Shown piece after piece: positions 14,802 through 36,502 of a DNA stretch of 64,000 bases. The notes under the pieces are model-generated. The model had not been told where the DNA came from. It was given only the letters and a program-made list of their open reading frames with translations, and ran no database searches. This DNA comes from an uncultured Gemmatimonadales bacterium (GTDB taxonomy: Bacteria > Gemmatimonadota > Gemmatimonadetes > Longimicrobiales > Gaopeijiaceae). The stretch covers positions 608,001-672,000 of the forward strand of contig CAWELD010000003.1 of NCBI GenBank assembly GCA_963809895.1. Direction: 5' to 3'. Made by a program: the position numbers and the translations under genes. How positions within the stretch are numbered: the first letter of the stretch is position 1; every line of letters starts with the position of its first letter.

Positions 14802-17800
14802 ATGTCCATCCCCCGCACCTCCACCCGGAGGCCCGTGGCGGTGGCCATGCTCTTCCTGGCGGTCATCCTGCTGGGGGGCATCGCCTACGTACGGCTCCCC
14901 ATCGACCTGCTGCCCGACGTGAGCTACCCGCGACTGGTCATCTACACTTCGTATCCCGACGTGGCGCCGGCCGAGATCGAGCGCATCGTCACGCAGCGGG
15001 TGGAGGCCGAGGCGGCGGGGGTGGCCGGCGTGGAGCAGGTGAGCTCCATCTCCCGCGAGGGCGTGAGCCTGGTGACGCTCCGCTTCGCGTGGGGCACGGA
15101 CATGGACTTCGCCATGCTCAACGTGCGGGAGAAGCTGGACAACCTGCGCGATCAGCTGCCGGAGACCGCGACCCGGCCCAGGATCCTGCGGGTGGATCCC
15201 GAGTCGGAGCCCATAATGGCGCTCAGCGTCGCCGGCGGGTCCGACCTGTGGCAGACCAAGGAGCTGGCCGAGACGGTCTTCCGCCGCCGTCTGGAGCAGT
15301 TGGACGGCGTGGCCCAGGCGGCGGTGACCGGTGGGCTGGACCGGGAGATCCAGGTGGAGGTGGATCCCAACCTCCTGCACGCCTACGACCTCACCCTGGC
15401 CCAGGTCTCGCAGGCGCTGGCGCAGGCCAACGTGAGCGCGCCCGGCGGCACCATCCTCCAGGGGCGCTACCGCTATCCCCTGCGCACGCTGGGCGAGTTC
15501 CAGAACGTCGACGAGATCGCCGACGTGGTGGTGGCCCGCCAGGCCGCCGGCGGCAGCGGCGGTGGTCAGCCCGATCCCGACAACCCGGGATTCCGCCTGA
15601 TCCGCCTGCGGGACATCGGGCAGGTGGTGGACGGGTTTGCCGAGCGGGAGTCCATCGCCCTCTACAACGGCGTGGAAGCCGTGGGCATCCTGGTCTTCAA
15701 GGAGTCCGGCGCCAACACGGTGACCGTGGCGAACTCCGTGTCCGACGTCCTGGACCAGCTCCGGCAGGAATATCCGGCGGTGCAGGTGGACGTGGCGTAC
15801 AGCCAGGCGGGCTTCATCTCCGAGTCCATCAGCAACGTGGTGCAGGCGCTGGTCTTCGGAGGCATCCTCGCCTTTCTGGTGCTCTTCTTCTTCCTGCGCG
15901 ACCCGCGCTATCCCTTCGCCATCGCGGCGGCGATCCCCATCTCGGTGGTGGGCACCTTCGCCCTCATGGAGGCGTCGGGCGTCTCGCTCAACATCATGAG
16001 CCTGGGCGGCCTGGCCCTGGGCGTCGGGATGCTGGTGGACAACTCCATCGTGGTGCTCGAGAACATCTTCCGGCACCGGGAGCTGGGTAAGTCCGGGATG
16101 GAGGCTGCGGCGTTGGGCGCCGAAGAGGTGCAGGGCGCCATCACGGCCTCGACCCTCACGACCATCTCGGTGTTCGGACCCATCATCTACGTGGAGGGCG
16201 TGGCCGGGGAGCTCTTCGGCGACCTGTCGCTGGCGGTGGCCTACTCGCTCATCGCTTCGCTGCTGGTGGCGCTGACCCTGCTGCCGGCCCTGGCGGCGCG
16301 CTTCGCCACGGGGCACGAGGTGCCGGTGACGGACGACACGCCGGCCGCCGAGCCGGGCCCTGGTCGCCTGCGCAAGATCGGCCGCGGCGCCCGTTGGGTG
16401 GTGCTGGCGCCCTTCCGCGGCCTGGCCTGGCTCGGCCGCCTCGCCAAGGAGCTGGTGGTCTTCTGGGGATCCGGCATCGGCCGGGGCATCGGACGCGTGT
16501 CTCGACCCTTCCTGGACGCCTTCGACCGGGTCTTCGCCCGCTTCGCCGAGCGCTACCACACGGCGCTGGAGTGGTCGCTGGATCATCGCTCCCGCGTGTT
16601 GGGCATTTCGGGGCTCGCCCTGGCCGTGTCCCTCCTCCTTGCGCTGGAGCTGCCTCGCGACCTGCTGCCCGCCGTGGACCAGGGCGGCTTCGACGTGCAG
16701 CTCATCCTGCAGGAAGGCACGGGGCTCGAGGCCACGCAGGAGGCGGCCCGGACCGTGGAGTCGACGCTGCTGGCCGACGAGGGCGTGGACGCGGTCTTCG
16801 GCCGGGTGGGGCGCGACGCCCGGGCCTACGCCGAGGGGCAGGAGGAGACGGGGCTCAACACGGCCCACTTCCAGGTGCGGCTCAAGGAGCACGCTCACAC
16901 CGAAGACGTCCTCGACCGGGTGCGCTCGCTCCAGGCGCAGTTCCCCCCGGGGGCACTGTCCTTCCAGGCCGGTCAGGCCACGGCGCTGGGGACCATCCTG
17001 GGCGGCTCCGACGCCGACGTGTCGGTGCGCATCCGGGGCGAGAGCCTGGACACCATGCTGACCCGAGCCGAGGCGGTGCGGGCGCGGCTCGCCGCGCTGC
17101 CCATGCTCGGCAACGTGCGGGTCGGCACCGAAGAGGGCACGCCCCAGGTGCAGGTGGAGATTCTCCGCACCCGCGCTGCGCAATACGGCATCGAGCCACG
17201 GACGGTGGCCGAGGTCGTGGATCGGGCGCTCCGGGGCGAGCGCGCCACCGACTTCGTGGACTTCGACCGCAAGATCGGGGTGGTGGTGAGCTATCCCAGG
17301 GACCAGCGCTACGCCCGCGCGACGCTGGAGGGGCTGCGGGTGAACGGGGTGCCCATCCGGGAGCTGGTGGAGATCCGTGACGCGCTGGGCCCGGCCGAGG
17401 TGCGACGCGAAGACCAGGGGCGGGTGATCCCGGTCTACGCTGACGTGCTGGAGGGGGGGCTGGATCAGGCCATCGACGCCATCCGCGCGTCGTTGGTGGA
17501 CTTCCCGCCGACCCGCTCGCTGCGCATGGACGTGGGCGGGGAGAACGAGGAGATGCGCCGCTCCTTCCGGGACCTGTCCTTCGCCTTCGGTCTGGCGCTC
17601 ATCCTGGTCTACATGATCCTGGCGGCCCAGTTCGAGTCCTTCGTGCACCCCTTCACGATCCTGACGGCGGTACCGCTGGCGCTGGTGGGCGCCGTGCTGG
17701 CGCTGGAAGTCACCGGCGAAGGCCTCAACACCATGAGCCTCATCGGCGTGGTGATCCTGGTGGGGATCGTGGTGAACGACGCCATCGTCAAGGTCGACTT

Positions 17801-18125
17801 CATCAACCAGGCGCGGGCCGCCGGCATGGGGCTCCGCGACGCCATTCTCGAGGCGGGACGGGTGCGCCTGAGGCCCATCATCATGACCACGGTGACCACG
17901 GTGCTGGGCCTGTTCCCCATGGCGCTGGGCATCGGCCGCGGCGCCGACCTGCGGGCGCCGCTGGCCATCGCCGTCATCGGCGGGCTGTCCGTGGCTACGC
18001 TGCTCACGCTCATCGTGGTGCCGGTGGTCTACGCCGTGGTGGAGGATGTGCGGTTGCGCATCCGCGGTGAAGCACCGGCGAGCACCTCGGCGGGCGGCGC
18101 CCTCGCCCCCGGCGCGGCCGACTAG
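14802..18125 (+). CDS. RND efflux permease (AcrB/MdtB-like) 1
   Basis: RRPVAV, GMLVDNSIVVLENI, GIVVNDAI, RLRPIIMT. Confidence 0.95.
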   Translation: MSIPRTSTRRPVAVAMLFLAVILLGGIAYVRLPIDLLPDVSYPRLVIYTSYPDVAPAEIERIVTQRVEAEAAGVAGVEQVSSISREGVSLVTLRFAWGTDMDFAMLNVREKLDNLRDQLPETATRPRILRVDPESEPIMALSVAGGSDLWQTKELAETVFRRRLEQLDGVAQAAVTGGLDREIQVEVDPNLLHAYDLTLAQVSQALAQANVSAPGGTILQGRYRYPLRTLGEFQNVDEIADVVVARQAAGGSGGGQPDPDNPGFRLIRLRDIGQVVDGFAERESIALYNGVEAVGILVFKESGANTVTVANSVSDVLDQLRQEYPAVQVDVAYSQAGFISESISNVVQALVFGGILAFLVLFFFLRDPRYPFAIAAAIPISVVGTFALMEASGVSLNIMSLGGLALGVGMLVDNSIVVLENIFRHRELGKSGMEAAALGAEEVQGAITASTLTTISVFGPIIYVEGVAGELFGDLSLAVAYSLIASLLVALTLLPALAARFATGHEVPVTDDTPAAEPGPGRLRKIGRGARWVVLAPFRGLAWLGRLAKELVVFWGSGIGRGIGRVSRPFLDAFDRVFARFAERYHTALEWSLDHRSRVLGISGLALAVSLLLALELPRDLLPAVDQGGFDVQLILQEGTGLEATQEAARTVESTLLADEGVDAVFGRVGRDARAYAEGQEETGLNTAHFQVRLKEHAHTEDVLDRVRSLQAQFPPGALSFQAGQATALGTILGGSDADVSVRIRGESLDTMLTRAEAVRARLAALPMLGNVRVGTEEGTPQVQVEILRTRAAQYGIEPRTVAEVVDRALRGERATDFVDFDRKIGVVVSYPRDQRYARATLEGLRVNGVPIRELVEIRDALGPAEVRREDQGRVIPVYADVLEGGLDQAIDAIRASLVDFPPTRSLRMDVGGENEEMRRSFRDLSFAFGLALILVYMILAAQFESFVHPFTILTAVPLALVGAVLALEVTGEGLNTMSLIGVVILVGIVVNDAIVKVDFINQARAAGMGLRDAILEAGRVRLRPIIMTTVTTVLGLFPMALGIGRGADLRAPLAIAVIGGLSVATLLTLIVVPVVYAVVEDVRLRIRGEAPASTSAGGALAPGAAD

Positions 18126-18134
18126 GAGGTCGTC

Positions 18135-21100
18135 ATGGTCAAGCTCAGCATCCGGCGTCCGGTGGCGGTGGCCATGACCTACATGGCCTTCACCCTCCTG
18201 GGCGTGTTCGCCTGGCGCAACATCCCCATCGAGCTGCTGCCCGAGACCCAGCTGCCGCGGCTGACCGTGACCGCGAGTTGGCCCGGCACGTCGCCGGAGA
18301 CGGTGGAGGCGTTCCTGACCTCGCCGCTGGAATCCACCATCAGTCAGTCGCAAGGGGTGGAGAAGATCATCTCCGACTCCCGCGAGGGGACCACCAGCAT
18401 CCAGGTGGAGTTCAGCCGGGACGTCGACATGGACTTCGTGCGCCTGGACCTGTCGGAGCGCTTGTCGGCGTTGGAGGACGATCTCCCGCCAGAGGTGCGC
18501 GCGGTCACCGTGACGCCCTACGTCCCCGACGAGTTCCAGGACCAGAACCGGCCCTTCCTGCTGTACACCTTTACCGGTCCCTACACCCTGGAGGCGCTGC
18601 ACAAGCATCTGGAAGACGTCGTGGTGCCCGACCTCAACCAGATCGAGGGTGTGGCGGTGGCCCGGGCGTCGGGGGGCCGGGAGCGGCGCCTGGAGATCCG
18701 GGTGGACGACGAGAAGGCACGCTCGTTGGGACTGGACCCGGTGCGGGTGAGCGCCGCCATCGGGGCGCTGGATCTGGTGCGCGAGGCGGGTGTGGTGCGC
18801 GAGGGTGATGCCGAGCGCACGGTCACGATCGTCAACCGGCCCCAGTCCGCCGACGACGTGCGCCGGGCCATCCTCACCACCGTCAACGGCACCGTGGTGC
18901 GGGTACAGGACGTGGCCAGCGTCCACGACACCTACGAGGAGGCCCGCCAACTGGAGCGCATCAACGGCCAGCCGGCGGTGACGCTCACCCTCCTGAAGGA
19001 GCCTGGCACCAACACGGTGCGTGTGGCCGATGCCGTGAAGGCGCGCATGGCCCAGCTCGAGCGGCTGAACCCCTACGGATCGCGCTTCATCCTCAACGAG
19101 CAGAACGACGCCAGCCGGGAGATCCACCGCCAGCTCACCGACCTGCGCTCCCGGGCGGCCATCGCCGCCGTGGTGATCTTCGTGGTGCTGCTGGTCTTCC
19201 TGCGCTCCTTCCGCTCCGCGGGACTCATCTTCGCCACCATCGCCTTCTCGGTGTTGATCTCGCTGAACCTGATCTACTTCGGCGGGTTGACGCTCAACCT
19301 GCTCACGCTCATGGGTCTGGCCATGGGCTTCGGGCTCATCGTGGACAACTCCATCGTGGTGCTGGAGAACATCTACCGGCGATGGCAGCGCGGTGAAGAC
19401 CCGTCGGAGGCCTCGGAGCACGGCGCCAAGGAGGTGGTGCTGCCGATCCTGGCCTCCACGGCCACGACGCTCATCGTCTTCGTGCCCTTCGTGTATCTGC
19501 AGGGCGAGCTGCGGGTCTTCTACGTGCCGCTGGCCATCGTGGTGGGGCTCACGCTGCTGGCGTCGCTCTTCGTGGCCTTCACCTTCATCCCGGCGCTGGC
19601 CACGCGCGTACTGTCCTTTGGCCGGCGTAGGGGGACCGCCCCGGTGGTGGCGCTGGGCGACGACGTGGGCGCAGGCGCGCTGGCGACGGCGTCCGGCGGG
19701 GGTGAGGGCGCCTATCGCCGGGCCCCGCTCTACGTGCGCTTCTACGAGGGTCTGGTGGGATTCACCGTCCGCTACCCCTGGGTGTCCGTGGCGGTGACCG
19801 CCCTGTGCTTCGCGGGCTCCTGGCACCTCTTCGACAAGTACGTCACGCGGGGCCGGGTGTGGGGCGGGGGCTTCGGGGGCGATACCTACATCTCGGTGCT
19901 CATCTCGTTGCCGCGGGGCTCCAACCTGGAGCGTACGGATCAGCTCGTGACCTTCTTCGAGAACAAGCTGAAGGAGCTGCCCCAGGTCGAGGAATTCGAC
20001 TCGAGAGTATCGGAGACCAACGGCTCGATCCGGGTGACCTTTCCCGACTCGCTGGAGCTCACCGCGGTGCCGGTGGCCATCAAGGAGCAGATGGTGGCCT
20101 ACAGCCACACCTTCACGGGGGCCGAGGTCCGCGTCTACGGCTACGGCCCGTCGTTCTACGGCGGCGGTGGTAGCCCACCCACGTACACCATCACGGTGCT
20201 GGGCTACAACTTCGACAAGGTGCGCGAGATCGCCGAAGACCTGGGGCGGCGGCTCAAGAACATCTCGCGGGTGCAGGAGGTGGACACCAACGCCTCACAG
20301 CGCTTCACCCGGGACAAGGCCACGGAGTTCGCCGTTCACGTGGACCGCACGGCTCTGGCCCGGCACGACATGACGGTGCAGGACCTGGTGGCACAGCTCG
20401 GCGCCGTCCAGAGCGGAGAGTCCCGCGGCCAGCAGATCAAGATCGGGGGCGACGAGCTGCTCTACGCCGTGAAGGTCCGGGACGTGGACGACATGGACGT
20501 GTTGGCGCTCAAGGAGACCCTCATCTCCACGCCCTCGGGCAACAGCATCCGCCTGGGTGACGTGGTGACCATCGAGCCCAACAACGTCCTGGCCACCATC
20601 CACCGGGAGAACCAGCAGTACCAGCGCAACGTGGCCTACGAGTTCCGGGGACCCAGCAAGCTGGGCGACCTTTACCGGGACGCCATCATCGACAACACGG
20701 TGCTGCCGCCGGGCTACACCATCGACACGCAGGACTACTGGCGCTGGAGCGAGGAGCAGCGGGCCCAGATCTACATGGTTCTGGGGATCTCCATCCTGCT
20801 CATCTACATGGTGACGGCGGCGCTCTTCGAGTCGCTCCGGCAACCGCTGTGCGTGCTCCTCACCGTGCCCATGGCGCTCATCGGCGTCTTCATGATGTTC
20901 TTCTACGCCCGGGCCACCTTCACCCGCGAGGCCTACATCGGCGTCATCATGATGGGGGGGATCGTGGTCAACAACGCCATCCTCCTGGTGGACCACATCA
21001 ACCGGGTGCGAGCTACCGGCCAGCACGCCTTGCCGGAGGCCATCCTCCGGGGAACGCTGGAACGGGTGCGGCCCATCCTCATGACCACGGCCACCACCGT

Positions 21101-21365
21101 GCTGGGGTTGGCCCCGCTGGTGCTCTTCAGCGAGAGCGCCGACTCCACCATCTGGAACGCCCTGGGCTTCGCCCTCATCGGCGGGCTCCTGTCGTCCACG
21201 CTCTTCGTGCTCACCACCACGCCGTCGCTCTACTATCTCTTCGAACGGGGCCCGGCGCGGCGGGCCGAGCTGCGGGCGCGGGCTTTGGCCGAGGGGACGG
21301 GTGCAGCGGCGGATGAGCCCGGATCGGTGTCGGGCGGCAGCGAGCCTTCACCTCAGCCGGCGTAG
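18135..21365 (+). CDS. RND efflux permease (AcrB/MdtC-like) 2
   Basis: GLIVDNSIVVLENI, GIVVNNAILL, RVRPILMT; RBS AGGAGG. Confidence 0.95.
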   Translation: MVKLSIRRPVAVAMTYMAFTLLGVFAWRNIPIELLPETQLPRLTVTASWPGTSPETVEAFLTSPLESTISQSQGVEKIISDSREGTTSIQVEFSRDVDMDFVRLDLSERLSALEDDLPPEVRAVTVTPYVPDEFQDQNRPFLLYTFTGPYTLEALHKHLEDVVVPDLNQIEGVAVARASGGRERRLEIRVDDEKARSLGLDPVRVSAAIGALDLVREAGVVREGDAERTVTIVNRPQSADDVRRAILTTVNGTVVRVQDVASVHDTYEEARQLERINGQPAVTLTLLKEPGTNTVRVADAVKARMAQLERLNPYGSRFILNEQNDASREIHRQLTDLRSRAAIAAVVIFVVLLVFLRSFRSAGLIFATIAFSVLISLNLIYFGGLTLNLLTLMGLAMGFGLIVDNSIVVLENIYRRWQRGEDPSEASEHGAKEVVLPILASTATTLIVFVPFVYLQGELRVFYVPLAIVVGLTLLASLFVAFTFIPALATRVLSFGRRRGTAPVVALGDDVGAGALATASGGGEGAYRRAPLYVRFYEGLVGFTVRYPWVSVAVTALCFAGSWHLFDKYVTRGRVWGGGFGGDTYISVLISLPRGSNLERTDQLVTFFENKLKELPQVEEFDSRVSETNGSIRVTFPDSLELTAVPVAIKEQMVAYSHTFTGAEVRVYGYGPSFYGGGGSPPTYTITVLGYNFDKVREIAEDLGRRLKNISRVQEVDTNASQRFTRDKATEFAVHVDRTALARHDMTVQDLVAQLGAVQSGESRGQQIKIGGDELLYAVKVRDVDDMDVLALKETLISTPSGNSIRLGDVVTIEPNNVLATIHRENQQYQRNVAYEFRGPSKLGDLYRDAIIDNTVLPPGYTIDTQDYWRWSEEQRAQIYMVLGISILLIYMVTAALFESLRQPLCVLLTVPMALIGVFMMFFYARATFTREAYIGVIMMGGIVVNNAILLVDHINRVRATGQHALPEAILRGTLERVRPILMTTATTVLGLAPLVLFSESADSTIWNALGFALIGGLLSSTLFVLTTTPSLYYLFERGPARRAELRARALAEGTGAAADEPGSVSGGSEPSPQPA

Positions 21366-21631: not shown

Positions 21632-23314
21632 ATGAGCACTGTCGCCGGCGCCCACGCGGGCCTGGATCGGGAGACGCTGGACCTCATTCTGGCGTCCATC
21701 CAGGACTTCGCCGACCAGAACCTGCCCACCGAGCTCCTCCTGGAGCTGGACGCCACCCACACCTTTCCGGAAGACCTGGTCCGCGCCATGTGCGGCGAGT
21801 TGGGCGTGCATCTGCTCTTCATCCCCGAGGCCTACGGAGGGATGGGCGGCGGGGCCTTCGACGTCTACCGGGTGTGCGAGCTCATGGGGGCCATGGACCT
21901 GAGCATCGCCACCGGCGTCCTGGCCACCTTCCTGGGCAGCGATCCGATCCTGTGGGGCGGCACCGAGGCGCAGAAGGAGCGCTGGATGACCCGGATTGCC
22001 GAGGAAGGTCTCCTCATGGCGTACGGCGCCACCGAGCCCGAGGCCGGCAGCGACCTGGGCGCCCTGCGCACCACGGCCACCCCGGTTCCGGCCACCGCCG
22101 AGACGCCGGCGGGCTACCGCATCAACGGCGCCAAGATGTGGATCAGCAACGGCGGGTACGCCGACCTCTACAGCGTGCTGGCGATGGCCCCGGCCGGGCC
22201 GACCTGGTTCGTGGTGGAGGCCGGCAGCGAAGGGCTGTCGGCGGGCAAGCCCGAGGACAAGCACGGCATTCGCGCAAGCAATACCGCTGCCCTCGCCTTC
22301 GAAGACCTGTTCGTGCCGGCGGACCAGCTCATCGGCGACCGGGAGGGACAGGGGCTCGTGCAGGCCCAGCTCGTGTTCGGCTACACGCGGCTCATGGTGG
22401 CCGCCTTCGGCCTGGGGGCCGGCTGGGCCGCATTGGAGCGGGCGCTCACCTACTCCACCACGCGCATCCAGGCCGGCGGGCCGCTGTCCGAGAAGCAGGG
22501 CTACACGCACAAGCTCATCGTGCCCCACGCCTGCCGCCTCGAGGCAGGCCGCGCCTTCATCGAGGAGACCGCGGCCCGGATCGACGCCGGTGAGGGCAGC
22601 CTCAACACCGAGGGGGCCATCGCCAAGTACGTGGCCACCGAGGCCGGCAACGAGGCGGCCGACGCCGCCATCCAGGCACTGGGCGGCTACGGCTACACCC
22701 GGGAGTACGTGGTGGAGAAGATCCGCCGTGACGTGCGCATCACCACGATCTACGAGGGCACGTCGGAGATCATGGAAATGACCATCGCCCGGGATCGCTG
22801 GCAGGAACACCTCAAGAGCCGCGGCCGCCACTACCACGACCGGGCCGCGGAGCTGGAGGGGCTGGCCGCCACACGGCCCGAGGTGGGCGCCGAAACCGCG
22901 GCGCTGGCCCACCACGCGCTGGCCGAGGTGCTGGAGCGTGCCCGGGTGGCGCGCCTCACGCGCAACCAGCACGTCCTCTTCCGCCTGGGGGCGCTCATCG
23001 CCGCCGTGGAGAGCGCGGGCGCGCTGGCCAGGAGAGCCGCGAAGGCCCTGGCGGGCGAGCTTCCCGCCAAGGGACTGGCGCGGCTCGCTCCCGACGCGTA
23101 CGCCGCGCTCAGCCGCTGCTACGCACGGGATGCGGCGGCGCGCGTCGCCGCCGAGGGCGTGCGTTGGACCGTGGGCGGCGACGGGGTGGACGCCTCGGAG
23201 CAGGGGGCCTTCGAGGCAGGGCTGGGACTGGCGGCCATCCACCGGGCGCAGGCGGGCTTGTTGGCGGACATGGACCGGGTGGCGCGGGGACTCTACGAGC
23301 GGCTCGAGGGTTGA
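21632..23314 (+). CDS. Acyl-CoA dehydrogenase with C-terminal extension
   Basis: [39 protein letters not shown]. Confidence 0.92.
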
Positions 23315-23385
23315 CCTCGGGCGGCTACCACACTCCACGCCGCCGGCCGGTGCGGTCGGCGGCTCACGCAGGCAGGGAGCGGGAC

Positions 23386-26300
23386 ATGGCAGGCACGGTC
23401 GACAGGGCCATCGCCATCGTGGGCGTGGGGGCGATCATGCCCGACGCCGCCGACGCGGACGCCTTCTGGCAGAACCTGGCGGACGGACGCTACAGCATCA
23501 GCGACGTCCCGCCCGAGCGCTGGGATCCCGACCTCTACTACGACCCCGACCCGGCGGCGCCGGACAAGACGTACTCCCGGATCGGCGGCTGGGTGGGCGC
23601 CTGGGATTGGAATCCCCTGGCCTGGCGGCTGCCCATCCCGCCCCGGGTGAGCGACGTCATGGATCTGGCCCAGAAATGGGCCATCGTCACGGCCCGGCAT
23701 GCCCTCCTGGACTACGGCTGGCCCGAGCGCGCGCTGAACCCCGAGCGCACGGCGGTGATCCTGGGGAACGCGCTGGGCGGCGATACCCACCTGCTGTCCG
23801 CGGCCCGCATCCTCTTTCCCGAGGTCGGCGACGAGCTCGCCCACGCGCCCACCTTCCAGAGCCTGCCGGCAGAGGTGCGAGGCGCCGTCATGGAGGAGTT
23901 GCTGGCCGGCGTGCGGAGCCGAATTCCGGACATCACCGAAGACACCATGCCCGGCGAGCTCAGCAACATCGTGGCCGGGCGGGTGGCGGCGGTCTTCGAC
24001 TTCCGCGGGCCCAACTTCGTCACCGACGCTGCCTGCGCGTCGGCCATGGCCGCCGTGAGCGCCGCCGTCGAGGGCCTGGAGGAGGGAGATTACGACACGG
24101 TCCTGACCGGCGGCATCGACGCCAACATGAGCCCGTCCACCTTCGTGAAGTTCTGCAAGATCGGCGCGCTGTCGGGCACCGGGACGAGGCCCTACGCCGA
24201 CGGGGCCGACGGCTTCGTCATGGGTGAGGGCGCCGCCACCTTCCTGCTCAAGCGCCTGGAGGACGCCGAGCGGGACGGCGACCGGGTGTACGCGGTGATC
24301 CGCGGACTCGGAGGCTCCAGCGACGGCCGGGGCAAGGGCATCACGGCCCCGAATCCCGTGGGCCAGCGCCTCGCCGTGGCCCGCGCCTGGGAGCGTGCGG
24401 GGCTCCGTCCCGAGGCCGGCGACATGGTCGAGGGGCACGGCACCTCCACGCGGGTGGGCGACGTGGTAGAGGTGGAGAGTCTCGGGCACGTCTTTCGCGA
24501 CTGGGGACTGGCCTCGGGGTCGGTGGCTCTGGGCTCCGTCAAGTCCAACATCGGGCACCTGAAGGCCGGCGCCGGCGCCGCGGGGCTCTTCAAGGCGGCG
24601 CTGGCGCTCCATCACAAGCAGCTTCCACCGAGCCTCAACTTCGAGCGGCCCAACCCGGCCATCGACTTCGCCGCCTCGCCCTTCCGGGTGGTGACGGAGC
24701 TCGCGCCCTGGGACAAGCCGGGCGGCGATGCGGTTCGGCGGGCCGGCGTGAGCGCCTTCGGCTTCGGGGGCACGAACTTCCATGCCGTGCTGGAGGAGTA
24801 CGTGCCCGGGCGTCTCGGGCGTCGTGCGCCCACGAGCACCGGCGCCGAGCTCGAGCGTCCCGGCGTTCCCGGCAATGGACACGCCACGAGGGCAGGTGGT
24901 ACGCCTCCGGCTTCTGGTGGCCAGCCTCCGAGGATGCCGCTCCGAGGAGCGCTCCTGGTGGGGGCGGCCACCGACGCCGAGCTGGCCTGGCGTCTACGGC
25001 AGGTAGCTGCCGAGGCGGCGGCCGGTCAGGCGCCGCCCCCGGGTATGCCTCTGGCTCGCGACCTGGAAGCGCCGGTGCGGGTGGCCATCGACTACGGCGA
25101 CGCCGAGGAGTTGGCGGCGGGTGCCGAACAGGCCGCGACCGCGCTGGAGGAGGGCGACGCCGGGCGCTGGAGAGCGCTCCGCAACAAGGGCGTGTTTCTG
25201 GGTCGGGGCCGGCCCGGCGAGGTGGCGTTCCTCTTCACCGGGCAGGGCTCGCAATACGTGGGAATGCTCCGGGAGCTCCGGCGCCTCGACCCGGTGGTGG
25301 CGGCCACCTTCGATGAAGCTGACGGCATCATGACGCCCCTCATCGGCGGCCCGCTGACGGATCGCATCTTCGTGGACGAAGACGACGAGGCGGCGGTGGC
25401 CGCCGCCGAAGAGGATCTCAAGCAGACCGCCATCACCCAGCCCGCGGTGCTCACCGTCGATACGGCACTGGCCCGTCTCATGGGCTCGTTCGGCATCCGT
25501 CCGGACATGGTCATGGGCCACAGTCTGGGCGAGTACGCCGCGCTGGTGGCGGCGGGGGCCATGACCTTCCGGGACTCCCTCATGGCGGTCTCGGCCCGGG
25601 GCCGGGCCATGACCGACCTGACACTGGGCGACAACGGGACCATGGCCGCGGTCTTCGGGGCCGTGGACCGGGTGGCCGAGCTGGTCGAGGCCATGGACGG
25701 CTACGTGGTGGTGGCGAACCTGAACAGCACCAAGGAGTGCGTCATCGGCGGCGCCACCGAGGACATGGACAAGGCCATGGAGGCGCTCCGGGACGAGGGG
25801 CTCCGGGTGGTGCAGTTGCCGGTGAGCCACGCCTTCCACACGCGCATCGTCGCCCCGGCTTCCGAGCCCCTGTCCATCACGCTGCGCGGTCTGGACCTGC
25901 GGCCGCCCGAGATTCCCATCGTGGCCAACGTGGACGGCGAGTTCTACCGCATGGAGCCCGGCAGCGAGGCCGGAATCGTGGACGTGCTGGCGACCCAGAT
26001 CGGTGCGCCGGTGCAGTTCGTGAAGGGGCTGCGCACGCTGTACGAGGCCGGGGCCCGCATCTTCGTGGAGATGGGTCCCAAGCGGGTGCTGTACGGTCTC
26101 GCGGAAGATGTTCTGGGCGAGCATGACGACGTGACCACCCTCTACACGAACCACCCGCGTACCGGCGACGTGGTCGCCGCCAACCGCGCGCTGTGCGGGT
26201 TGTGGGCCGCGGGGGTGGGAGAGGGAGCAAGGGAAGAGGTGGCGGCCTCGACGCCCGACCCCGTGGCGCCGACGGCGCCAGCGGCCGGTCCCGAGGACCG

Positions 26301-29300
26301 CTACCTGACGCTGGGCCGCATGTTCGCGGACTTTCTGGACCAGAGCTTCCAGGTCTACGGGGGTGAAGGACGCCGCCCCCAGGCGACCAGAGTAGGCATC
26401 ACCGGAGCATCGCTCGGACTTCCGGGCACCGAAGGCGTGCTGGCCGATGACAACGCGGCGCGGCTTCTGGAAGGCACGCAGCTCATCGAGGCCGTGCCGG
26501 CCGCCGTGCGCACGGGGATGCTCGGCCGGCGCATCACCCGCCTGGTGAAAGGGAGCGGTGGGGAGGCGAGCTTCGAGACCATCGCCGACGAGAGTGACGT
26601 GGTGAAGCTCGCCGGGCAGGGCAGAGACGAGGCGCTGGTGGAGCGCTACGGGTTCCCCCGGGATCGGGTCGCCGCACTGGACCGGGTAACCCGGCTCGCC
26701 ATCGCTGCCGGGATCGATGCACTGCGCGACGCGGGCATCCCCCTGGTGCGACGCTACCGTACCACCACCACCGGCTCGCAGCTACCCGAGGGATGGGAGC
26801 TGCCCGAGGAGATGCGGGACGACACGGGCATCATCTTCGGGTCGGCCTTTCCGGGAGTCGACACCCTGGTGCGCACCCTGGACGCCTATCACGAGGATCG
26901 CACGCGTCGCGCCCGGCTGGATGAGCTCCGGACCCTGCGCGACGCCGGGGCCGATCACATGGATTCCGAGGCCCGGCTGACGCTGGAGCGGCGCCTCGCC
27001 GAGGCCAAGGCGGCCGTGGAGGAGGAGCCCTTCCAGTTCGACCGCCGCTTCCTGTTGCAGGTCCTGGCCATGGGCCATTCCCAGTTCGCCGAGTACATCG
27101 GCGCCCGGGGACCGAACATTCAGACGAACGCGGCCTGCGCCACGGGCACGCAAGCCGTGGCGCTGGCCGGGGATTGGATCGAAGCGGGGCGTTGCCGCCG
27201 CGTCATCGTGGTCACTGCCGACGATGTCACCAACGAAGCCATGTTCCCCTGGTTCGGCGCGGGCTTCCTGGCGTCGGGGGCGGCGGCCACCGACGCTCGC
27301 GTGGAGGACGCGGCGCTCCCCTTCGACAGGCGGCGCCACGGCATGATCGTGGGCATGGGCGCCGCGGCTCTCGTGGTCGAGGATCTGTCTTCGGCCGCGG
27401 GGCGCGGCCTGGATCCCATCTGCGAGTTGTTGGGGACCGAGGTGGCCAACAGCGCTTTCCACGGCACCCGGCTGGACGTGGAGCACATCGCCGAGGTCAT
27501 GGAACGGCTGGTGGCCGGGGTGGAAGCCCGCCACGGGCTGCGACGCGACGAGCTGGCCCGGGAGCTGGTCTTCGTCTCGCACGAGACCTACACGCCCGCT
27601 CGGGGCGGTAGCGCCTCGGCCGAGGTGCGAGCCCTGCGCCACGTGTTCGGGGCGCGGGCCGACGACGTGGTGGTGGCCAACACGAAGGGATTCACGGGGC
27701 ACCCCATGGCCGTGGCCATCGAGGACGTCCTGGCCGTACGCATGCTGGAGACCGGGATCGTGCCGCCGGTGGCGAACTTCCGGGAAGTGGATCCGGAACT
27801 GGGCCGCCTGAACCTGTCGCGCGGCGGGTCCTACCCCGTGCGGTACGCGCTGCGGCTGGGTGCGGGATTCGGCTCTCAGATCAGCATGAGCCTGCTGCGC
27901 TGGACGCCCCCGCCGGACGGCGCGCGCCGGGATCCGAGGCGGAACGGGTTCGCGGGCCGCGTGCGCGATCCCGCGGCCTGGAACGCGTGGCTACGGCGCG
28001 TGACCGGCTACGCGGTGCCCGAGCTGGAGGTCGAAGCGCGCACCCTCAGGTTGAGGGATCAGGGGCCGCCGAGGCCCACGCGTGTTCCGCCGCCGTCGAT
28101 GCCTGCCTCCGCCGAGGCTCCCGTCCGGACGGCCACGGCTCCGATTCCGCCGACGACACCGAAGGTCGTGGAGGCTCCTCCCGAGGTCGCGGCGCCGCCG
28201 AGCCCCGCGGTGACCGAGACGACGCCCGCGACCGCACCCGCGCCCTCCTCCTCCGAGGTGGAGTCCGAGGTGCGCGGGCGTGTGCTGGGGATCGTGGCGG
28301 AGCAGACGGGCTACCCGGCGGACATGCTGGAGCTGGACCTGGATCTGGAAGCGGATCTGGGGATCGACACGGTGAAGCAGGCGGAGATGTTCGCGGCGAT
28401 CCGCGAAGCGTACGACATCGAGCGCGACGAGAACCTGGCGCTGAGGGACTACCCGACGCTGGCCCATGCCATCGAGTTCGTGTTCGAGAAGAGGCCGGAG
28501 CTCAGGGGCGCGGGTGGCGGTGGAGTACCTGTCGCGGCCCCCGCGGAACCTGTGGCGACGGCCGCAGCGCCGCCCGCGACGCCCACCGTGGAGTCCGAGG
28601 TGCGGGAGCGCGTACTGGGGATCGTGGCGGAGCAGACGGGCTACCCGGCGGACATGCTGGAGCTGGACCTGGATCTGGAAGCGGATCTGGGGATCGACAC
28701 GGTGAAGCAGGCGGAGATGTTCGCGGCGATCCGCGACGCGTACGACATCGAGCGCGACGAGAACCTGGCGCTGAGGGACTACCCGACGCTGGCCCATGCC
28801 ATCGAGTTCGTGTTCGAGAAGAGACCGGAGCTCAGGGGCGCGGCCTCGTCGCCGTCCGCGGATCCGGTGACATCGACATCGACGTCTGGCGTCGGCGGTG
28901 GCGGAACCGGCGTCAGCGCAGGCACCGGCCGCGGCGCCCTCCTCCTCCGAGGTGGAGTCCGAGGTGCGGGAGCGCGTGCTGGGGATCGTGGCGGAGCAGA
29001 CGGGCTACCCGGCGGACATGCTGGAGCTGGACCTGGATCTGGAAGCGGATCTGGGGATCGACACGGTGAAGCAGGCGGAGATGTTCGCGGCGATCCGTGA
29101 CGCGTACGACATCGAGCGCGACGAGAACCTGGCGCTGAGGGACTACCCGACGCTGGCCCATGCCATCGAGTTCGTGTTCGAGAAGAGACCGGAGCTCCGC
29201 TCGAGGGTGGGTGCGGCGGCGGCCACCGACGCTCCGGCAGAGGTGGGATCGGAGGAGACCGCGACCGGCACGGTGGCGGCCCCGGCGCCTCGGTCCTCCG

Positions 29301-31801
29301 TGCCCCGGGGATCCATGGAGGCGGCCCGGGCGCTGCCCCGACGGGGTCCGGTGGCACGTCTCAGGCCTCCGGCCACCCGCTTCGACAGCACGGGCGTGGA
29401 GTTGGCCGAGGGCGACCGCGTGGTCGTGATGCCCGACGAGGGCGGCGTGGGCGCGGCCCTGAAGGGACGCCTGGAATCCCGGGGCGTGACGGTCCTCGAC
29501 ATCGACGGCGACCCGTCCGTGGCCGACATGGAATCCATGGCCGAGGCCTGGGCCGCCGCGGGACCCGTGCGAGGCGTGTACTGGCTGCCGGCTCTGGACG
29601 GGGTGGATCAGGCGTCGTTGGAGGACGCCGGGTCGCGGCGTGCCGCGCTGCACCGCCGCGTGAAGCTTCTCCACGCCACCATGCGGGCCCTCTACGAGCG
29701 GGTCGGTGCGTCCGGGACGTTCCTGGTCGCCGGCACCCGCCTCGGGGGCCGGCACGGGTACGACGAGGACGGGGCCACCGACGTGGCCGGAGGCGCCGTC
29801 ACCGGGTTCACGAAGTCCTTCGGCCGCGAGCGCCCCGAAGCGCTGGTGAAGGCGGTGGACTTCGAGCCGTCGCGCAAGACCGCGGCGCTGGCGGACCTGC
29901 TCCTGGAAGAAACGCTCCACGACCCGGGCGTGGTGGAGGTGGGTTACGCCCGGGATCGCCGGTGGGCCGTGGCATTCGAGGACCTGCCACCACACGAGCC
30001 CGAGGGTGTCGAGAGCACCTGGAAAGGCGGTGGTGTCCATGTCGTGACCGGCGCAGCCGGGAGCATCGTGTCGGCCATCGTCGCCGATCTCGCGTCGGCA
30101 GGCGGCGGTACCTTCTGGCTCCTGGACCTGACGCCCGAACCCGACCCGGCCGACCCGGACCTGCAGCGCTTCCGCACGGACCCCGACGGCCTCAAGCGCG
30201 AGCTCTTCGAGCGCATGCGCGCCCGGGGCGAGCGGGCGACCCCGGCACGGGTCGAGCGAGCGCTGGCCGGGATCGAGCGCTCGGCCACGGCACTGGCCAC
30301 CATGGAGGCGGTGCGGGCGGCGGGAGGCCGGGCCGTGTGGCGGAGCTGCGACCTGCGCGACGCCGAGGCGGTGGCGGAGATCCTGGCGGAGCTCCGGGGT
30401 CAGCATGACGCGGTCGACGTGCTGATCCACGCCGCAGGGCTGGAGATCAGCCGCTCGCTCCCGGACAAGTCTCCAGAGGAGTTCGCGCTGGTCTTCGACG
30501 TGAAGGCCGATGGCTGGCTGAACCTGATGGCGGGCCTGGCCGACACGCCCCTGGGAGCCGCGGTGGTGTTCAGCTCCATCGCCGGGCGCTTCGGCAACGC
30601 GGGTCAGGCCGACTACAGCGCGGCCAACGACCTGCTCTGCAAAGCGGTGTCGGCGCTGCGCCGCACGCGGCCCGACACCCGGGGGCTGGCGCTGGATTGG
30701 ACGGCGTGGGCCGACATCGGTATGGCCGCACGCGGCTCCATCCCAGCCATCATGGCCCGGGCGGGCATCGACATGCTCCCGCCCGAGGCGGGCATCCCGG
30801 TCGTGCGGCGCGAGCTGGGCCTCGCAACCCGCGCCGAGCTGGTGGTGGCACAGGCGCTGGGGACCATGCTGGAGGACCGGGCACCGCGTGGGGGGTGGCC
30901 GGCGGAGAGCGGCTCGTCTGCTGGGCCCATGGCGGGCATGGTGACCCGTTTCTCGCCCGAAACCGGGCTCGACATGGAGGTCACCCTGGATCCCGCGGAG
31001 CAGCCGTTCCTGCGGGACCACCGCATCGACGGGGTGGCGGTGCTGCCCGGGGTGATGGGGCTGGAGGCCATGGCCGAAGCCGCGCTGACCGGCTTCCCCG
31101 AGCTGCGCCTGGTAGCGGCGGAGGACGTGCGTTTCCTGGCGCCGTTCAAGTTCTATCGCGACGAGCCGCGCACCGTCTACACGAGCGCCCGCTTCGCCCT
31201 CGAAGGTGACCAGGTGGTGGCGGACTGCGTGGTGCTTGGCCGCCGCACCCTCCACGGGCGAGCGGAGCCCGAGGTCACGGTCCACTTCAGGGGTCGGATC
31301 CGCATAGCGGTCCAGGACGCAGCCGCGGCCTCGTCGGAGGACTGGCCCGCAGAAGAGGCGGAGGGCGTCGAGGCTTCGGACATCTATCGCCTCTTCTTCC
31401 ACGGTCCGGCATACCAGGTGGTGGCCAGGGCCTGGAGGGCCGATGGGCGGGTGGAGGGACGTCTTGCCGCGCCGCTTCCGGCCAATCACGCGCCGGCGGA
31501 GCTGCCGACGGTGGCCGCGCCGCGTCTGGTGGAGCTTGCCTTCCAGGTGGCGGGACTGGCCGAGATGTCGGCCTCTCGCCGCATGGGGCTGCCCGACGGC
31601 ATCGGCCGGTTGGAGTTCAGTGGCGGGGTCCCCGGCGAGGCCGAGGGCATGGTGGCCGTGGCCCGGGCGTCGAACGGCGAGGAGCACGAGGTCGTCGTGA
31701 TCGACGGAGACGGCCGCGTCCGCCTCGAGCTCACGGGCTACCGGACATCGGCGCTGCCCGGGGTGGTGGACGCCACGCCGCTGGAGAGGCTCAAGGGCTG
31801 A
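23386..31801 (+). CDS. Type I PKS/FAS-like megasynthase KS-AT-KS-ACP-ACP-ACP-KR-DH (apparent +1 frameshift between 28871 and about 28950)
   Basis: KS1 DAACAS/EGHGTST/NIGHLK; AT GHSLG/HAFH; KS2 NAACAT/SHETYT/FTGHPM; 3x [44 protein letters not shown]. Confidence 0.9.
28258..29197 (+). repeat. Three near-identical ~245-bp ACP-coding repeats
   Basis: Copies at about 28258-28503, 28588-28833 and 28952-29197, separated by Ala/Pro-rich linkers. Confidence 0.93.
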
Positions 31802-32538
31802 TGTCGGTGATCCATCTGGCTCGGGCCGAGGTCCGGGAGGTCCCTTCGGGGGATGGCTGGCTGGCGTCGCCCGAGCGCCAGGAACAGCCGCCGCCCCGCT
31901 TCGGCAAGCGACGGTCCGACTGGCGCCTGGGCCGCTGGACGGCGCACCGGGCGTTGCAGGGCTTTCTCGAGGTGGAGGAGGTGGCCCGGGGCCAGGGCGA
32001 GCCCTACGTCCAGGCCGGCGAGGACGGTGCGCCGCGGGTGCGCTGGACCGGCGGGACCGGGCCTCGCCTCGTGGTGTCCCTCAGCCACAGCCACGGGGCC
32101 GGTTTCGCGGCCGTGGGGCCGGGGCCGGAGCTGGCGCTGGGGGTCGATCTCGAGCGGGTGGAGCCACGCAGCGCGGCCTTCATCCGCGACTACCTCACGC
32201 CCGCAGAGCAGGCGACCATCGCCGCCGCACCCGAGGATCACGTGCGGGTCCTGGCCAACCTGGCGTGGAGCGGCAAGGAATCGGTGCTCAAGGCGCTCCG
32301 CGAGGGACTTCGCATGGACCCGGCGACGGTCGAGGTGGATCTGGAAGGGCCGGCCCGCGCGCTGGCGGACGCCGGCTCCGGGGTCTCCGAGGTCCCGTGG
32401 CAGGGCCTCTCCGTGGTGCGAGCGAACGGTGGCTCGCTCCACGGTTGGTGGCGGCTGGAGGACGGTTTCGTGTGGACCATCGCCTGCGACGCCAGCGTGC
32501 AGCTGCGGGAAGAGGCGCCGGTCGCCCGCGGCGCCTGA
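31801..32538 (+). CDS. Sfp-type 4'-phosphopantetheinyl transferase
   Basis: VSLSHS, LGVDLE, WSGKESVLKA; start overlaps the PKS stop. Confidence 0.9.
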   Translation: MSVIHLARAEVREVPSGDGWLASPERQEQPPPRFGKRRSDWRLGRWTAHRALQGFLEVEEVARGQGEPYVQAGEDGAPRVRWTGGTGPRLVVSLSHSHGAGFAAVGPGPELALGVDLERVEPRSAAFIRDYLTPAEQATIAAAPEDHVRVLANLAWSGKESVLKALREGLRMDPATVEVDLEGPARALADAGSGVSEVPWQGLSVVRANGGSLHGWWRLEDGFVWTIACDASVQLREEAPVARGA

Positions 32539-32622
32539 AGTCCCTGCGCTCTTCATCCCCGGGCCGGATTGCGTAGGTTTCGGGCTGGATGCCCTCCCCC
32601 CACCCGAGCCCGCAAGGTGAAC

Positions 32623-34976
32623 GTGAGCGACACGGCTTCCGATGCCGGGCGCAGCGCCGGCAAGGACTTCATCCGGTCCATCATCGACCGGGACGTGGCC
32701 GAGGAGCGCTACGACGAGATCGTGACGCGCTTCCCGCCGGAGCCCAACGGCTACCTGCACATCGGCCATGCCAAGTCCATCGTGCTCAACTTCGGTCTCG
32801 CCGGCGAGTACGGCGGACGCTGTCATCTGCGCTTCGACGACACCAACCCCCTCACCGAGGACGAGGAGTACACGGCCTCGATCCAGAGCGACGTGCGCTG
32901 GCTGGGATTCGACTGGGGCGAATATCTCTATTTCGCCTCGGACTACTTCGAGCGCATGTACGAGGTGGCGGAACGCCTGATCCGGGCGGGGAAGGCGTAC
33001 GTGGATTCGGCGACCGAGGAGGAGATTCGCGAAGCCCGCGGTACCGTGACCACCCCCGGGCGTCCCACCGCCTATCGCGACCGGTCGGTGGAGGAGAACC
33101 TGGATCTGTTCCGGCGCATGAGGGCTGGAGAATTTCCCGACGGCGCCCACGTCCTGAGGGCGCGCATCGATCTGGCGCATCCGAACATGATCATGCGCGA
33201 TCCCGTCTTCTACAGGATCCGGCACGCGCACCACTACCGCACCGGCGACGACTGGTGCATCTACCCGCTCTACGACTTCGCCCACTGCCTCGAGGACGCC
33301 TTCGAGGGCGTGAGCCACTCGCTGTGCACGCTGGAGTTCGACAACAACCGCGAGATCTACGACTGGATCCTGGAGCACGCCGGGTTCACCGAGCCGCGCC
33401 CCCACCAGTACGAGTTCGCCCGTCTGGAGCTCGAATACACGGTGCTCTCGAAGCGCAAGCTCATTCGCCTCGTCAAGGAGAAGCACGTCGACGGTTGGGA
33501 CGATCCGCGGCTGCCCACGCTGGCGGGGCTCCGGCGCCGGGGCGTGCCCCCCGAGGCCATCCGGCGGCTGTGCGAGATGGTGGGCGTGGCCAAGGCGGAC
33601 TCCACCGTGGACCTGGGCAAGCTGGACTACGCCATCCGCGACGTGCTCAACGACACGGCACCGCGGCGCCTGGCGGTGCTGGACCCGCTCAAGGTGGTGA
33701 TCACCAACTGGCCCGCGGGCAAGCAGGAAATGCTGTCGGCGCCCCACTTCCCGGATCGCGGAGCCGAGGATGGTACCCGCGATGTCCGACTCGGCCGGGA
33801 GCTGTACATCGAGCGTGACGACTTCGCCCTGGATCCCCCACCGGGCTGGAAGCGCATGGCGCCGGGCTGGGAGGTGCGCCTGCGCTACGCCTATGTGGTG
33901 AAGTGCGAGGAGGTGATGACGGATCCCGACAGCGGACGGGTGACCGAGCTGCGCTGCACCTACGATCCCGACACCCTGGGCGTGAATCCCCCGGACCGGC
34001 GGGTGGCGGGAACCGTGCACTGGGTGTCCGACCTGGACGCCGTCCTCGCCGAGGTGCGGCTCTACGACCGCCTGTTCTCGGTGCCCGATCCCGACGACGT
34101 GCCGGAGGGGGGCGACTTCACCGACAACCTGAACCCCGACTCCCGCGTGGTCATGTCCGAGGCGCTGGTGGAGCCGGCGCTGGCGGCCGCCGAGGGTCCG
34201 GAGCGGGTGCAGCTCGAACGGTTGGGGTTCTTCGCCCGCGATCCCGACTTCGCGCCGAGCCATCCGGTCTACAATCGCGTGGTGACGCTGCGCGACAGCT
34301 GGGCTCGCCGCCGCGCCGAGGCGGACGCGGAGCGGGGCGGGCGGTCCAGCAGGCGACCACGCCAGCGCGCCGCCGCCTCCCCAGACGCCCGAGGAGCGCA
34401 TCTCCCACGAGCGGCGCGAAGCGCGCCAGGGAGATCCGGAGCTGGCCGAGCGTTTCCGCCGGTACCAGGACGAGCTGGGGCTCTCGCTGGAAGACGCCGA
34501 CATCGTCACCGGATCCCGTGCCCTCTCGGACTTCTTCGAAGCGGCGCTGGACGTGCACGACGATGCCGCCTCGGTGGCGTCGTGGGTGACCAACGATCTC
34601 CAGGCCGAGCTCAAGGATCGCGAGCTGGAGGCGCTGCCCTTCGGGGGCCGCCAGCTCGGGCGGCTGGCAGCGCTGGTGGACGGAGGCACGGTCTCGCGCA
34701 GGGCCGCGCGTCAGGTCCTCGAGGAGATGGCGAGCCAGGGTGGCGATCCCGAGGACCTCGTGCGCAGCGCTCGGTCTGGAGAAGCTCAGCGACCCCGAGG
34801 CGCTCGCCGCGGTGGTGGCCGAGGTGCTGGAGGCGTGGTCCGAGAAGGTGGAGGAGTACCGAGCCGGCAACACCAACCTCCTGGGCCTCTTCATGGGGCA
34901 GGTCATGAAGCGCACCGGTGGCACGGCGGATCCGGCCCTGGCGCGCCGGCTGCTCCAGGAAGCGTTGCAGGACTGA
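32623..34976 (+). CDS. glnS: Glutaminyl-tRNA synthetase with C-terminal YqeY-like domain (frameshifts near 34330-34430 and 34765)
   Basis: TRFPPEPNGYLHIGHAK, LSKRKL, QLERLGFF; YqeY pieces (LGLFMGQVMKRTGG.ADP) lie in shifted frames. Confidence 0.9.
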
Positions 34977-35046
34977 GCGCCTCGCGCCTGCCCGGCCGTC
35001 CCCGACCTCCAGCCAACGACTCGCTCACCGAGAACGAGGATTCCGC

Positions 35047-36502
35047 GTGTCCATCCGCGTCCGCTTTCCACCGTCTCCCACCGGCTACCTGCACGTGGGT
35101 GGCGCCCGTACGGCCCTCTTCAACTGGCTGCTCGCGCGACAACAGGGTGGCAGCTTCGTGCTGCGCATCGAGGATACCGATCGCGAGCGATCCGACGAGG
35201 CGCACGTCCAGGCGATCCTGGAGGGCCTCACCTGGCTGGGCTTGGACTGGGACGAAGGACCGTTCTTCCAGAGCCGGGGCGTGGAGCGGCATCGTGCGGC
35301 GGCGCGCCGCCTCCTGGAAGAAGGGAAGGCGTATCGGGACTTCACCGATCCCGCCGAGCTGAGGGCGGAGGCCGAGGCGAGAGGCATCGGGCATCCCAGC
35401 GTGCTGGCCCGGGAGAAGGCCGACGCCATGAGCGCCGACGAGATCCAGGAGCGCGTGGACAGGGGCGAGCCCCATGCCGTTCGCCTGCGGGTGCCGGAAG
35501 GCGAGACGCGCTGGCACGATCTGGTCCATGGCGACATGGTCTTCGCCAACGCCGACCTGGACGATCTGGTGATCCTGCGCAGCGACGGCTCGCCCATCTA
35601 CAATCTGGCCGTGGTCTCCGACGATGCCGAGCAGGGCATCACCCACGTGGTCCGGGGCGACGACCACCTGTCCAACACGCCGAAGCAGATCCTGATCTAC
35701 GAGGCGCTGGGGCTCGCCGTGCCCACCTTCGGGCACGTGCCCATGATCCTCGGACCCGACGGCAAGCGCCTGTCCAAGCGTCACGGCGCCACCGCCGTGG
35801 CCGAGTACGCCCGCAGCGGAATCCTCCCGGAGGCCATGGTCAACTTCCTCGCGCTCCTGGGCTGGAATCCCGGCGACGAGCGCGAGGTCATGGATCGCGC
35901 CGAGCTGGTGCGGTCGTTCGCCATGGAACGGGTGCAGAAGAAGAGCGCCGTCTTCGACATGGCCAAGCTCGAGTGGCTGAACGGGCAGTATCTGGCCGAG
36001 AAGCCCGCCGAGGCGCTGGCGCCCCTGGTCACGGAGCGTCTGGCGGAGCGCGGAATCACGCCGGAGCGCTGGAGCGCGCGGGGTGAGGCGTGGTTCGAGG
36101 CGTTGGTGGATCTCCTCAAGACCCGGTCCCGGACCGTCGAGGAGCTGGCGGCTCAGGCCGTGCCGTACCTGGTGGACGATCCGGAGCTGGACGCCGATGC
36201 GGTGGCCAGGCACTGGAACAAGGATCCCGAGGGCGTGGCCACCCGCTTGCGCCGATTGCGCTCGGTCTACGAGGACTGCCCATGGCAGGCGCAGGCCCTG
36301 GAAGAGCGCCTGCGGGCGCATGGCAGCCGAGCTCGGGCGTCGGGGCGGGAAAGGTGATCCATCCGCTGCGGGTGGCGCTCACCGGTCAGGCTGCGAGTCC
36401 CGGGATCTTCGACGTGCTCCTGGTTCTGGGGCGCGACACGTCGCTGCACGGATCGACCGGGCCCTGCACAGACTGGGCGCGGAGCACGAAAAGCTTTCTT
36501 GA
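35047..36502 (+). CDS. gltX: Glutamyl-tRNA synthetase (frameshifts at about 36318-36450)
   Basis: [30 protein letters not shown]-terminal [14 protein letters not shown] lies in an alternate frame. Confidence 0.92.

Follow-up and report, generated by a model that had tools for sequence, protein, structure and literature searches.

Gene content of the locus and its relationship to Type R synthases

A 64,000 nt window of the genome of an uncultured Gemmatimonadales bacterium (GenBank assembly GCA_963809895.1, contig CAWELD010000003.1, positions 608,001 to 672,000) contains three genes arranged head to tail, all on the + strand. They encode an acyl-CoA dehydrogenase (ACAD), a large synthase with two ketosynthase (KS) domains, and a phosphopantetheinyl transferase (PPTase). 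The synthase has the domain order KS1-AT-KS2-ACP3-KR-DH (AT, acyltransferase; ACP, acyl carrier protein; KR, ketoreductase; DH, dehydratase) and, judged by its layout as described for the group rather than by the sequences of named members, is a member of the Type R kind of secondary lipid synthase. Features are listed below with coordinates counted from the first base of the window.

21632..23314, + strand: ACAD, 560 aa (Pfam Acyl-CoA_dh N, M and 1)
23386..31801, + strand: Type R megasynthase with two ketosynthases, 2804 aa provided that the additional base at 28888 is spurious
23404..24801, + strand: KS1, PfaA-type ketosynthase with Cys-His-His intact
25228..26133, + strand: malonyl-type AT with GHSLG, SARG and HAFH
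26392..27900, + strand: KS2, a second ketosynthase of FabF fold that has Cys-His-His-Lys and carries the signature of the family
26857..27024, + strand: helical hairpin insert in KS2 of about 55 residues (helices 156-185 and 192-211 of the model), absent from FabF
28264..28503, + strand: ACP1, with DLGIDTV
28594..28833, + strand: ACP2, from the domain scan
28888..28889, + strand: +1 frameshift in the ACP2-ACP3 linker, marked by a switch in third-position GC content (GC3) and by one short-read contig that is one base shorter
28958..29197, + strand: ACP3, from the domain scan
30032..30715, + strand: PfaA-type KR with the catalytic K/S/Y/N conserved
30968..31762, + strand: double-hotdog DH of polyketide synthase (PKS) type, with HxIxGxxVLPG and with ELxFQ, Glu being at the acid position
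31801..32538, + strand: Sfp-type PPTase (Pfam), with VSLSH in the translation

The ACAD gene ends 71 bp before the synthase ATG (23386), as the original prediction from this sequence had stated, and the PPTase start and the synthase stop share one base. In the assembly, the synthase is split into two open reading frames (ORFs; 23386-29100 and 28898-31801). The original prediction treated it as one gene with the correct domain order but missed the frameshift at 28888. GC3 changes frame near 28850, and a short-read contig (run X2; 173 nt, depth 3.1) that is otherwise identical has one G fewer at 28888. Dropping this base yields a single ORF of 2804 aa. Given the shorter contig, and the open synthase frames of same-genus relatives (2986 and 3106 aa), the break is likely an assembly error, on the basis of this single low-depth contig. 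RNA run X3 contributed a small share of near-identical contigs, which as contigs cannot show transcription.

KS1 carries DAACAS (24025), HGTST (24436) and NIGHL (24547), and the AT carries GHSLG (25516) and HAFH (25828). The latter motif, from which malonyl specificity had been predicted, is conserved as SHAFH in 112 of 113 aligned sequences. The three ACPs are near-identical (234-238 of 240 nt). KS1, AT, the tandem ACPs, KR and DH all find their best match in the PfaA model TIGR02813, with scores of 698.5 and 211.6 bits for the two synthase halves scanned separately (cut-off 1010). Scans against Pfam and NCBIfam found neither an enoyl reductase (ER) nor a thioesterase (TE) domain in the synthase, in agreement with the original prediction. 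Because the same order is found in all 82 close homologues that have KS1, KS2 and DH, with no space for an extra domain, the KS1-AT-KS2-ACP-KR-DH arrangement is not a product of chance.

The architecture had been thought unusual, but it was catalogued in 2011 as Type R (Shulse & Allen 2011, PMC3098273) and has thousands of homologues. As described there for Koribacter, Solibacter, Elusimicrobium and Roseiflexus, Type R consists of one PfaA homologue with the arrangement KS-MAT-CLF-ACP3-6-KR (MAT, malonyl acyltransferase; CLF, chain length factor) and a downstream PPTase with an hShxH (P1b') motif, and its product is given as uncharacterised. In Koribacter, an acetyl-CoA carboxylase (ACC) gene is reported between the synthase and the PPTase. 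The locus studied here agrees in having a single PfaA homologue with KS2 in the 'CLF' slot, three ACPs and a KR, followed by a PPTase whose VSLSH fits hShxH. Among related loci from Terriglobales, 9 of 13 have a carboxylase gene between synthase and PPTase, as described for Koribacter. The locus studied here differs in that the published description calls the third domain a CLF and lists no DH, whereas here the catalytic residues of KS2 are kept and a DH is present. Likewise, 'acyl-CoA dehydrogenase' has 0 occurrences in the main text of that paper, whereas here the ACAD is a fixed partner. The literature covered, mostly outside subscription journals, includes neither a Type R product, in line with the earlier suggestion that the product could be undescribed, nor an ACAD serving as the reductase of such a synthase.

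Among 7993 candidates scored, 4073 match the KS2 region at E<=1e-20. When GTDB was scanned, 550 of 598 stretches were confirmed and the total was estimated at about 900. The best 80 GTDB loci, on which all GTDB neighbourhood counts below rest, come from Gemmatimonadota, Acidobacteriota, Actinomycetota, myxobacteria, Bacteroidota and others. Homologues include ones named Korobacteraceae and Chloroflexales, and the homologue names as a whole indicate a host in Gemmatimonadota. The spread is patchy, with the synthase present in 4 of 19 other genomes of the same genus. Similarity also extends to the polyunsaturated fatty acid (PUFA) synthases PfaA-E, which share KS1, AT, tandem ACPs, KR and DH; the presence of two KS and of a flavin reductase in trans, which the ACAD would be here, is a parallel. 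However, the locus has no PfaB, PfaC (KS-CLF, FabA-type DH) or PfaD, and its KS2 resembles FabF and is inserted, as a fused domain, between AT and ACP. No pfaB, pfaC or pfaD was seen among the scanned neighbours in the window or the recurrent neighbour families.

The ACAD and the enoyl reductase position

The ACAD belongs to an orthologous subfamily with about 61-75% identity across phyla, and the catalytic Glu375 (IYEGTS) is invariant in the aligned orthologues. Its predicted model (pLDDT 91.3) has human very-long-chain acyl-CoA dehydrogenase (VLCAD) as the best fold match (TM 0.77) and includes a VLCAD-like C-terminal helical extension. The best NCBIfam match is AcrC, far below the cut-off. 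The gene lies directly upstream of the synthase in 62 of the 64 assessable loci. Four samples comprising 904 genomes were also searched, using a threshold of >780 bits for ACAD orthologues; only 4-10 candidates per genome were scored in these larger searches. KS2 of the close clade was found in 10/151, 17/151, 2/301 and 20/301 genomes, and the ACAD orthologue in 11, 17, 2 and 19, respectively. The two occur together in 48 of 49 close-clade carriers, and the single genome with only the ACAD has a KS1 next to it at a contig end. Distances between the ACADs correlate with the KS1 and KS2 distances (Spearman 0.75 and 0.66, values that are inflated by kin). The ACAD is a dedicated trans partner of the synthase, a role that had been predicted and that the upstream position and the joint occurrence uphold.

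Five CoA-using ACADs carry Asp or Asn at a position which we take to be that of the adenine-binding Asp of the TcsD comparison. In the ACAD studied here this residue is Gly (53/53), and the β5-β6 loop is short. TcsD, an ACAD that acts on ACP-bound substrate, is described as being without the adenine-binding Asp and as having the same loop shortened (10.1101/736256).

Relatives of the synthase beyond the close clade were sought among representatives at 50% identity. An N-terminal extension of >450 aa is present in 15 of the 74 distant representatives with a KS1 start, and this region of 540-750 aa is of the FabK/nitronate monooxygenase (NMO) type. All 15 extensions match a profile seeded on the 7 of them that carry PF03060, the 5 tested against the FabK model TIGR03151 all score 86-126 bits, below the cut-off, and the consensus retains EGxExGGHxG. 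Carriers include records named Asgard archaeon, Bradymonadaceae and Desulfobacterales bacterium. In the phylum of a Polyangiaceae record (G049), KS2 is present in 80 of 301 genomes. It scores >770 bits in 20 of these, 19 of which have the ACAD orthologue, and the remaining 60 have no ACAD match >700 bits. Twenty of these 60 distant-clade loci, chosen for long contigs, were inspected, and a fused FabK-type domain was found in 7 and the ACAD in none. Conversely, the fused domain was found in none of 120 close homologues and none of 125 close-clade or other regions. Hence, the position in front of KS1 is taken by either the FabK-type domain or the ACAD, and no locus was seen with both. That a known reductase family fills the same slot is the best argument for the ACAD as a reductase, and suggests this function.

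In a quick tree of KS2, 22 of 57 forks are open and the fused versus unfused label needs up to 7 changes, of which at least 2 are forced; no order of events is claimed. A metagenome scan for FabK-fused loci returned 2 short, uninformative loci.

Reduction of enoyl thioesters by an ACAD with an electron-transferring flavoprotein (ETF) in lipid synthesis is described for wax ester fermentation in Euglena (PMC6587861). The Euglena ACAD/ETF pair, Bcd, CarC and AcrC are all ACAD-fold flavoproteins that reduce enoyl thioesters with ETF electrons. However, these systems use CoA esters in reversed beta-oxidation, whereas here the proposed substrate would be held on the ACPs of a type I synthase.

Several observations weigh against assigning the missing reduction to the ACAD, or against the wider proposal of which it is part. 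The locus and genome counts are not independent, as kin share loci, and in one carrier of the close clade (L076/G084), whose genome is incomplete, the ACAD is missing. The short loop is not unique, being found also in the CoA-type structure 2dvl. Sister ACADs (600-675 bits) occur without KS2 in four genomes (G416, G810, G900 and G925). The one in G416 (C11:46985-48589) is 53% identical, lies among unrelated genes with no lipid genes adjoining, and keeps FGYTRL, so this motif is not specific to synthase partners; the same genome has a FabK-like candidate away from the sister ACAD, which was considered as a possible reductase of the fatty acid synthase of type II (FAS II). Because 13 of the 20 distant-clade loci have neither the ACAD nor an intact FabK-type domain nearby, although 5 of the 13 retain a weak FabK-type remnant (18-38 bits), members of the wider family do not all require a reductase encoded nearby. 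A FabI-like gene in the host (motif match only) could act in trans. Wax ester synthase/diacylglycerol acyltransferase (WS/DGAT) genes were found in 0 of 14 synthase carriers of the host's family, compared with 28 of 32 other carriers, which rules out a wax ester or triacylglycerol (TAG) storage sink in the host lineage. Finally, the EtfD-EtfAB-ACAD chain of M. tuberculosis is described as oxidative (PMC8593149).

The strongest rival is one in which the ACAD works in the oxidative direction, desaturating either an acyl-CoA starter or a chain bound to ACP, and passing electrons to ETF and the quinone pool, with enoyl reduction, if any, carried out by host FabI or FabK. Most ACADs and EtfD-type chains are oxidative, and the host FabI-like gene and the 13 distant loci without a local reductase fit such a scheme. 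The M. tuberculosis chain is an oxidative example (PMC8593149), and the ACP-acting ACADs described from PKS clusters desaturate (10.1101/736256). However, an oxidative ACAD leaves unexplained why a FabK-type domain and the ACAD share one slot in different clades, and no hydratase or thiolase family is recurrent among the neighbours. We regard it as unlikely; the sequence evidence suggests that the ACAD is directed to the missing enoyl reduction step in preference to desaturation.

Some of the distant relatives differ further in composition. An Asgard group archaeon record (P0273) predicts a 3592 aa protein with the order FabK-type ER-KS-AT-KS2-ACP-KR-DH-PPTase, and a Heimdallarchaeota archaeon record (P0291) a two-KS synthase of 3234 aa with a fused PPTase and no ER extension. 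If the bins are clean, archaea may thus possess a fatty-acyl synthase of type I that is nearly complete. A Desulfobacterales-type clade (P0377, P0381, P0375) combines the FabK-type domain with three KS-like stretches in one chain. Of the 13 distant synthases with no reductase, 5 (L163, L168, L171, L174, L175) have the PPTase fused to the synthase and are directly followed by a gene for a GNAT acyltransferase, which may be a release partner, and others are followed by biotin carboxyl carrier protein (BCCP) and carboxyltransferase (CT) genes.

The second ketosynthase

The original prediction placed a second KS between the AT and the ACPs, with its Cys, both His and an altered HGTGT motif, and all of these were recovered: NAACAT begins at 27127 (Cys codon at 27136), HETYT is at 27580 and FTGHP at 27691. 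SHETYTP is shared without exception by the 121 close KS2 sequences. Among the distant representatives, Cys is kept in 148/150, the first His in 144/145, the Glu that follows it in 144/145, and Lys and the second His each in 144/144. The predicted model (pLDDT 88.6) has the FabF fold (TM about 0.84 over the target), and sequence and fold searches of the PDB with KS2 also led to FabF. KS2 is as conserved as KS1, with mean pairwise identities of 69% and 68% across 48 loci. As it keeps Cys-His-His-Lys and the predicted FabF-like fold, KS2 is probably an active second ketosynthase. Retention of the catalytic Cys/His set rules out a CLF, and kinship with the KS of fungal FAS or with FabY, which was indicated by Atlas feature matches only, was set aside in view of the FabF result.

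The KS domains of PUFA synthases divide the labour between them. By analogy, the role given most weight for KS2 is a second elongation activity at a different (longer) chain stage than KS1, a view held tentatively and put at a little under an even chance; priming from acyl-CoA and a terminal or head-to-head condensation would be unlikely functions, with equal weight given to each. A special role for KS2 had been proposed originally, and the part of it that stands is that the domain looks catalytic, whereas the head-to-head joining mentioned there gained no specific support. In that scheme, a terminal or head-to-head condensation of the OleA or Pks13 kind, with the Glu as base, would join two acyl chains and release a branched or very long lipid. 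It would account for the missing TE, the Glu kept after the first His (144/145) and the hairpin insert, which lies near the acyl-pocket lid according to the FabF alignment. However, the full decarboxylative His-His-Lys set of FabF is retained, the AT is of the malonyl type, and the cassette has no conserved ligase of the acyl-AMP or acyl-CoA kind. This scheme is compatible with the ACAD as reductase, and is rated marginally below the oxidative ACAD in likelihood.

Supply genes, host context and proposed pathway

The original prediction called for comparing the ACAD-synthase-PPTase order across genomes. The ACAD, the PPTase and, in most other lineages, a single-chain carboxylase resembling ACC are tightly linked to the synthase, but the gene directly downstream of the synthase encodes a carboxylase of ~1850 aa in 46 of 51 loci and the PPTase in 4. 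The carboxylase of a Terriglobales member has Pfam matches to biotin carboxylase (BC), BCCP, ACC_central and CT. It resembles SACE_4237, a multidomain ACC described as one polypeptide of ~200 kDa whose central region is eukaryote-like (Livieri 2019, PMC6491548), in being a single chain with an ACC_central match. The multidomain carboxylase is absent from the host genome.

In Terriglobales, a membrane Fe-S oxidoreductase is encoded within about 4 kb upstream of the ACAD with etfBA between them (15 of 16 loci), AdhE is present in 7 of 16 loci, and WS/DGAT in the flanks of 9 of 16. A membrane Fe-S oxidoreductase also adjoins the ACAD in 16 of the 80 GTDB loci, mostly Solirubrobacterales. The two sets of oxidoreductases are only ~32% identical, suggesting that two lineages recruited them separately. 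No linked carboxylase, etfBA, Fe-S oxidoreductase, AdhE or WS/DGAT is found at the cassette in the host genome, which has unlinked etfBA and a gene of the ETF-quinone oxidoreductase (ETF-QO) type, and in which no WS/DGAT gene was found. The host also has a FAS II operon (plsX-fabH-fabD-acpP-fabF region), and a FabF-like gene is present in 48 of 55 synthase carriers (two entries being the same genome). The system is therefore accessory in the host, and replacement of FAS II by the synthase is ruled out.

Other genes near these loci were less regular. A gene of the HMG-CoA-reductase family is near the cassette in 4 of 80 loci (L019, L061, L080, L082), and L016 has a second KS-AT-KR-DH gene (2-5182), with no KS2 or ACP matches, just upstream of the ACAD and synthase. 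In the window, genes for a membrane fusion protein and two tandem AcrB-type transporters of the resistance-nodulation-division (RND) family (11900-21365) are directly upstream of the ACAD on the same strand, and are not a recurrent neighbour family at related loci. Downstream, GlnRS-like and GluRS-like ORFs (32569-36357) seem frame-shifted near their C-termini, which fits indel errors in the assembly. An integrase (rve) of insertion sequence (IS) type at 43560-44708 is at the start of a stretch of lower GC content (0.60-0.66, about 44-56 kb).

We propose that the Type R cassette is iterative and produces long, largely reduced fatty-acyl chains from malonyl-CoA, with the ACAD running in reverse as the enoyl-ACP reductase, a reading of the sequence evidence that we consider evenly balanced between right and wrong. 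The PPTase would arm the three ACPs and the AT would load malonyl. A KS would then condense, the KR reduce and the DH dehydrate, and the ACAD would reduce the enoyl-ACP with electrons from ETF, itself fed from the quinone pool via the membrane Fe-S oxidoreductase or ETF-QO. KS2 would be the second active condensing enzyme, most likely at a different (longer) chain stage. Release would be expected to occur when the AT, KS2 or an acyltransferase of the host passes the acyl chain to CoA or to a lipid acceptor, and in Terriglobales the wax ester/TAG synthase encoded alongside would be the likely acceptor enzyme. Iterative PKSs without an ER, for example the enediyne PKSE, make unreduced or partly reduced products, and an unreduced polyene or partly reduced polyketide tailored by the ACAD would be in keeping with KR and DH in a synthase with no ER, and with the 13 distant loci that lack a reductase, of which 5 are next to a GNAT gene; but as sister forms carry the fused FabK-type domain, no thioesterase or tailoring genes are conserved, and the tandem ACPs, the carboxylase linkage and the WS/DGAT genes of 9 of 16 Terriglobales genomes fit a bulk lipid better, this is improbable.

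Hundreds of species from soil and sediment, most of them uncultured, carry Type R synthases. The ACAD as required partner and a predicted active KS2 define a set of components to express, namely ACAD, synthase, PPTase, ETF and a malonyl-CoA supply, and the three-gene ACAD-synthase-PPTase version is about the smallest. More broadly, Type R could be a third kind of self-contained type I FAS, found in many bacterial phyla and with Asgard relatives, in which two KS are active and enoyl reduction is assigned to one of two parts in the same slot, a fused FabK-type domain or a reversed ACAD using respiratory electrons (passed from quinol via ETF and ACAD to enoyl-ACP). This wider interpretation is possible but doubtful. 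If true, the ACAD would belong to an enoyl-ACP reductase class not previously described, and lipid synthesis would be coupled to the respiratory chain; at loci with linked WS/DGAT and AdhE, the system would be a bacterial counterpart of Euglena wax ester fermentation, with lipid synthesis as an electron sink.

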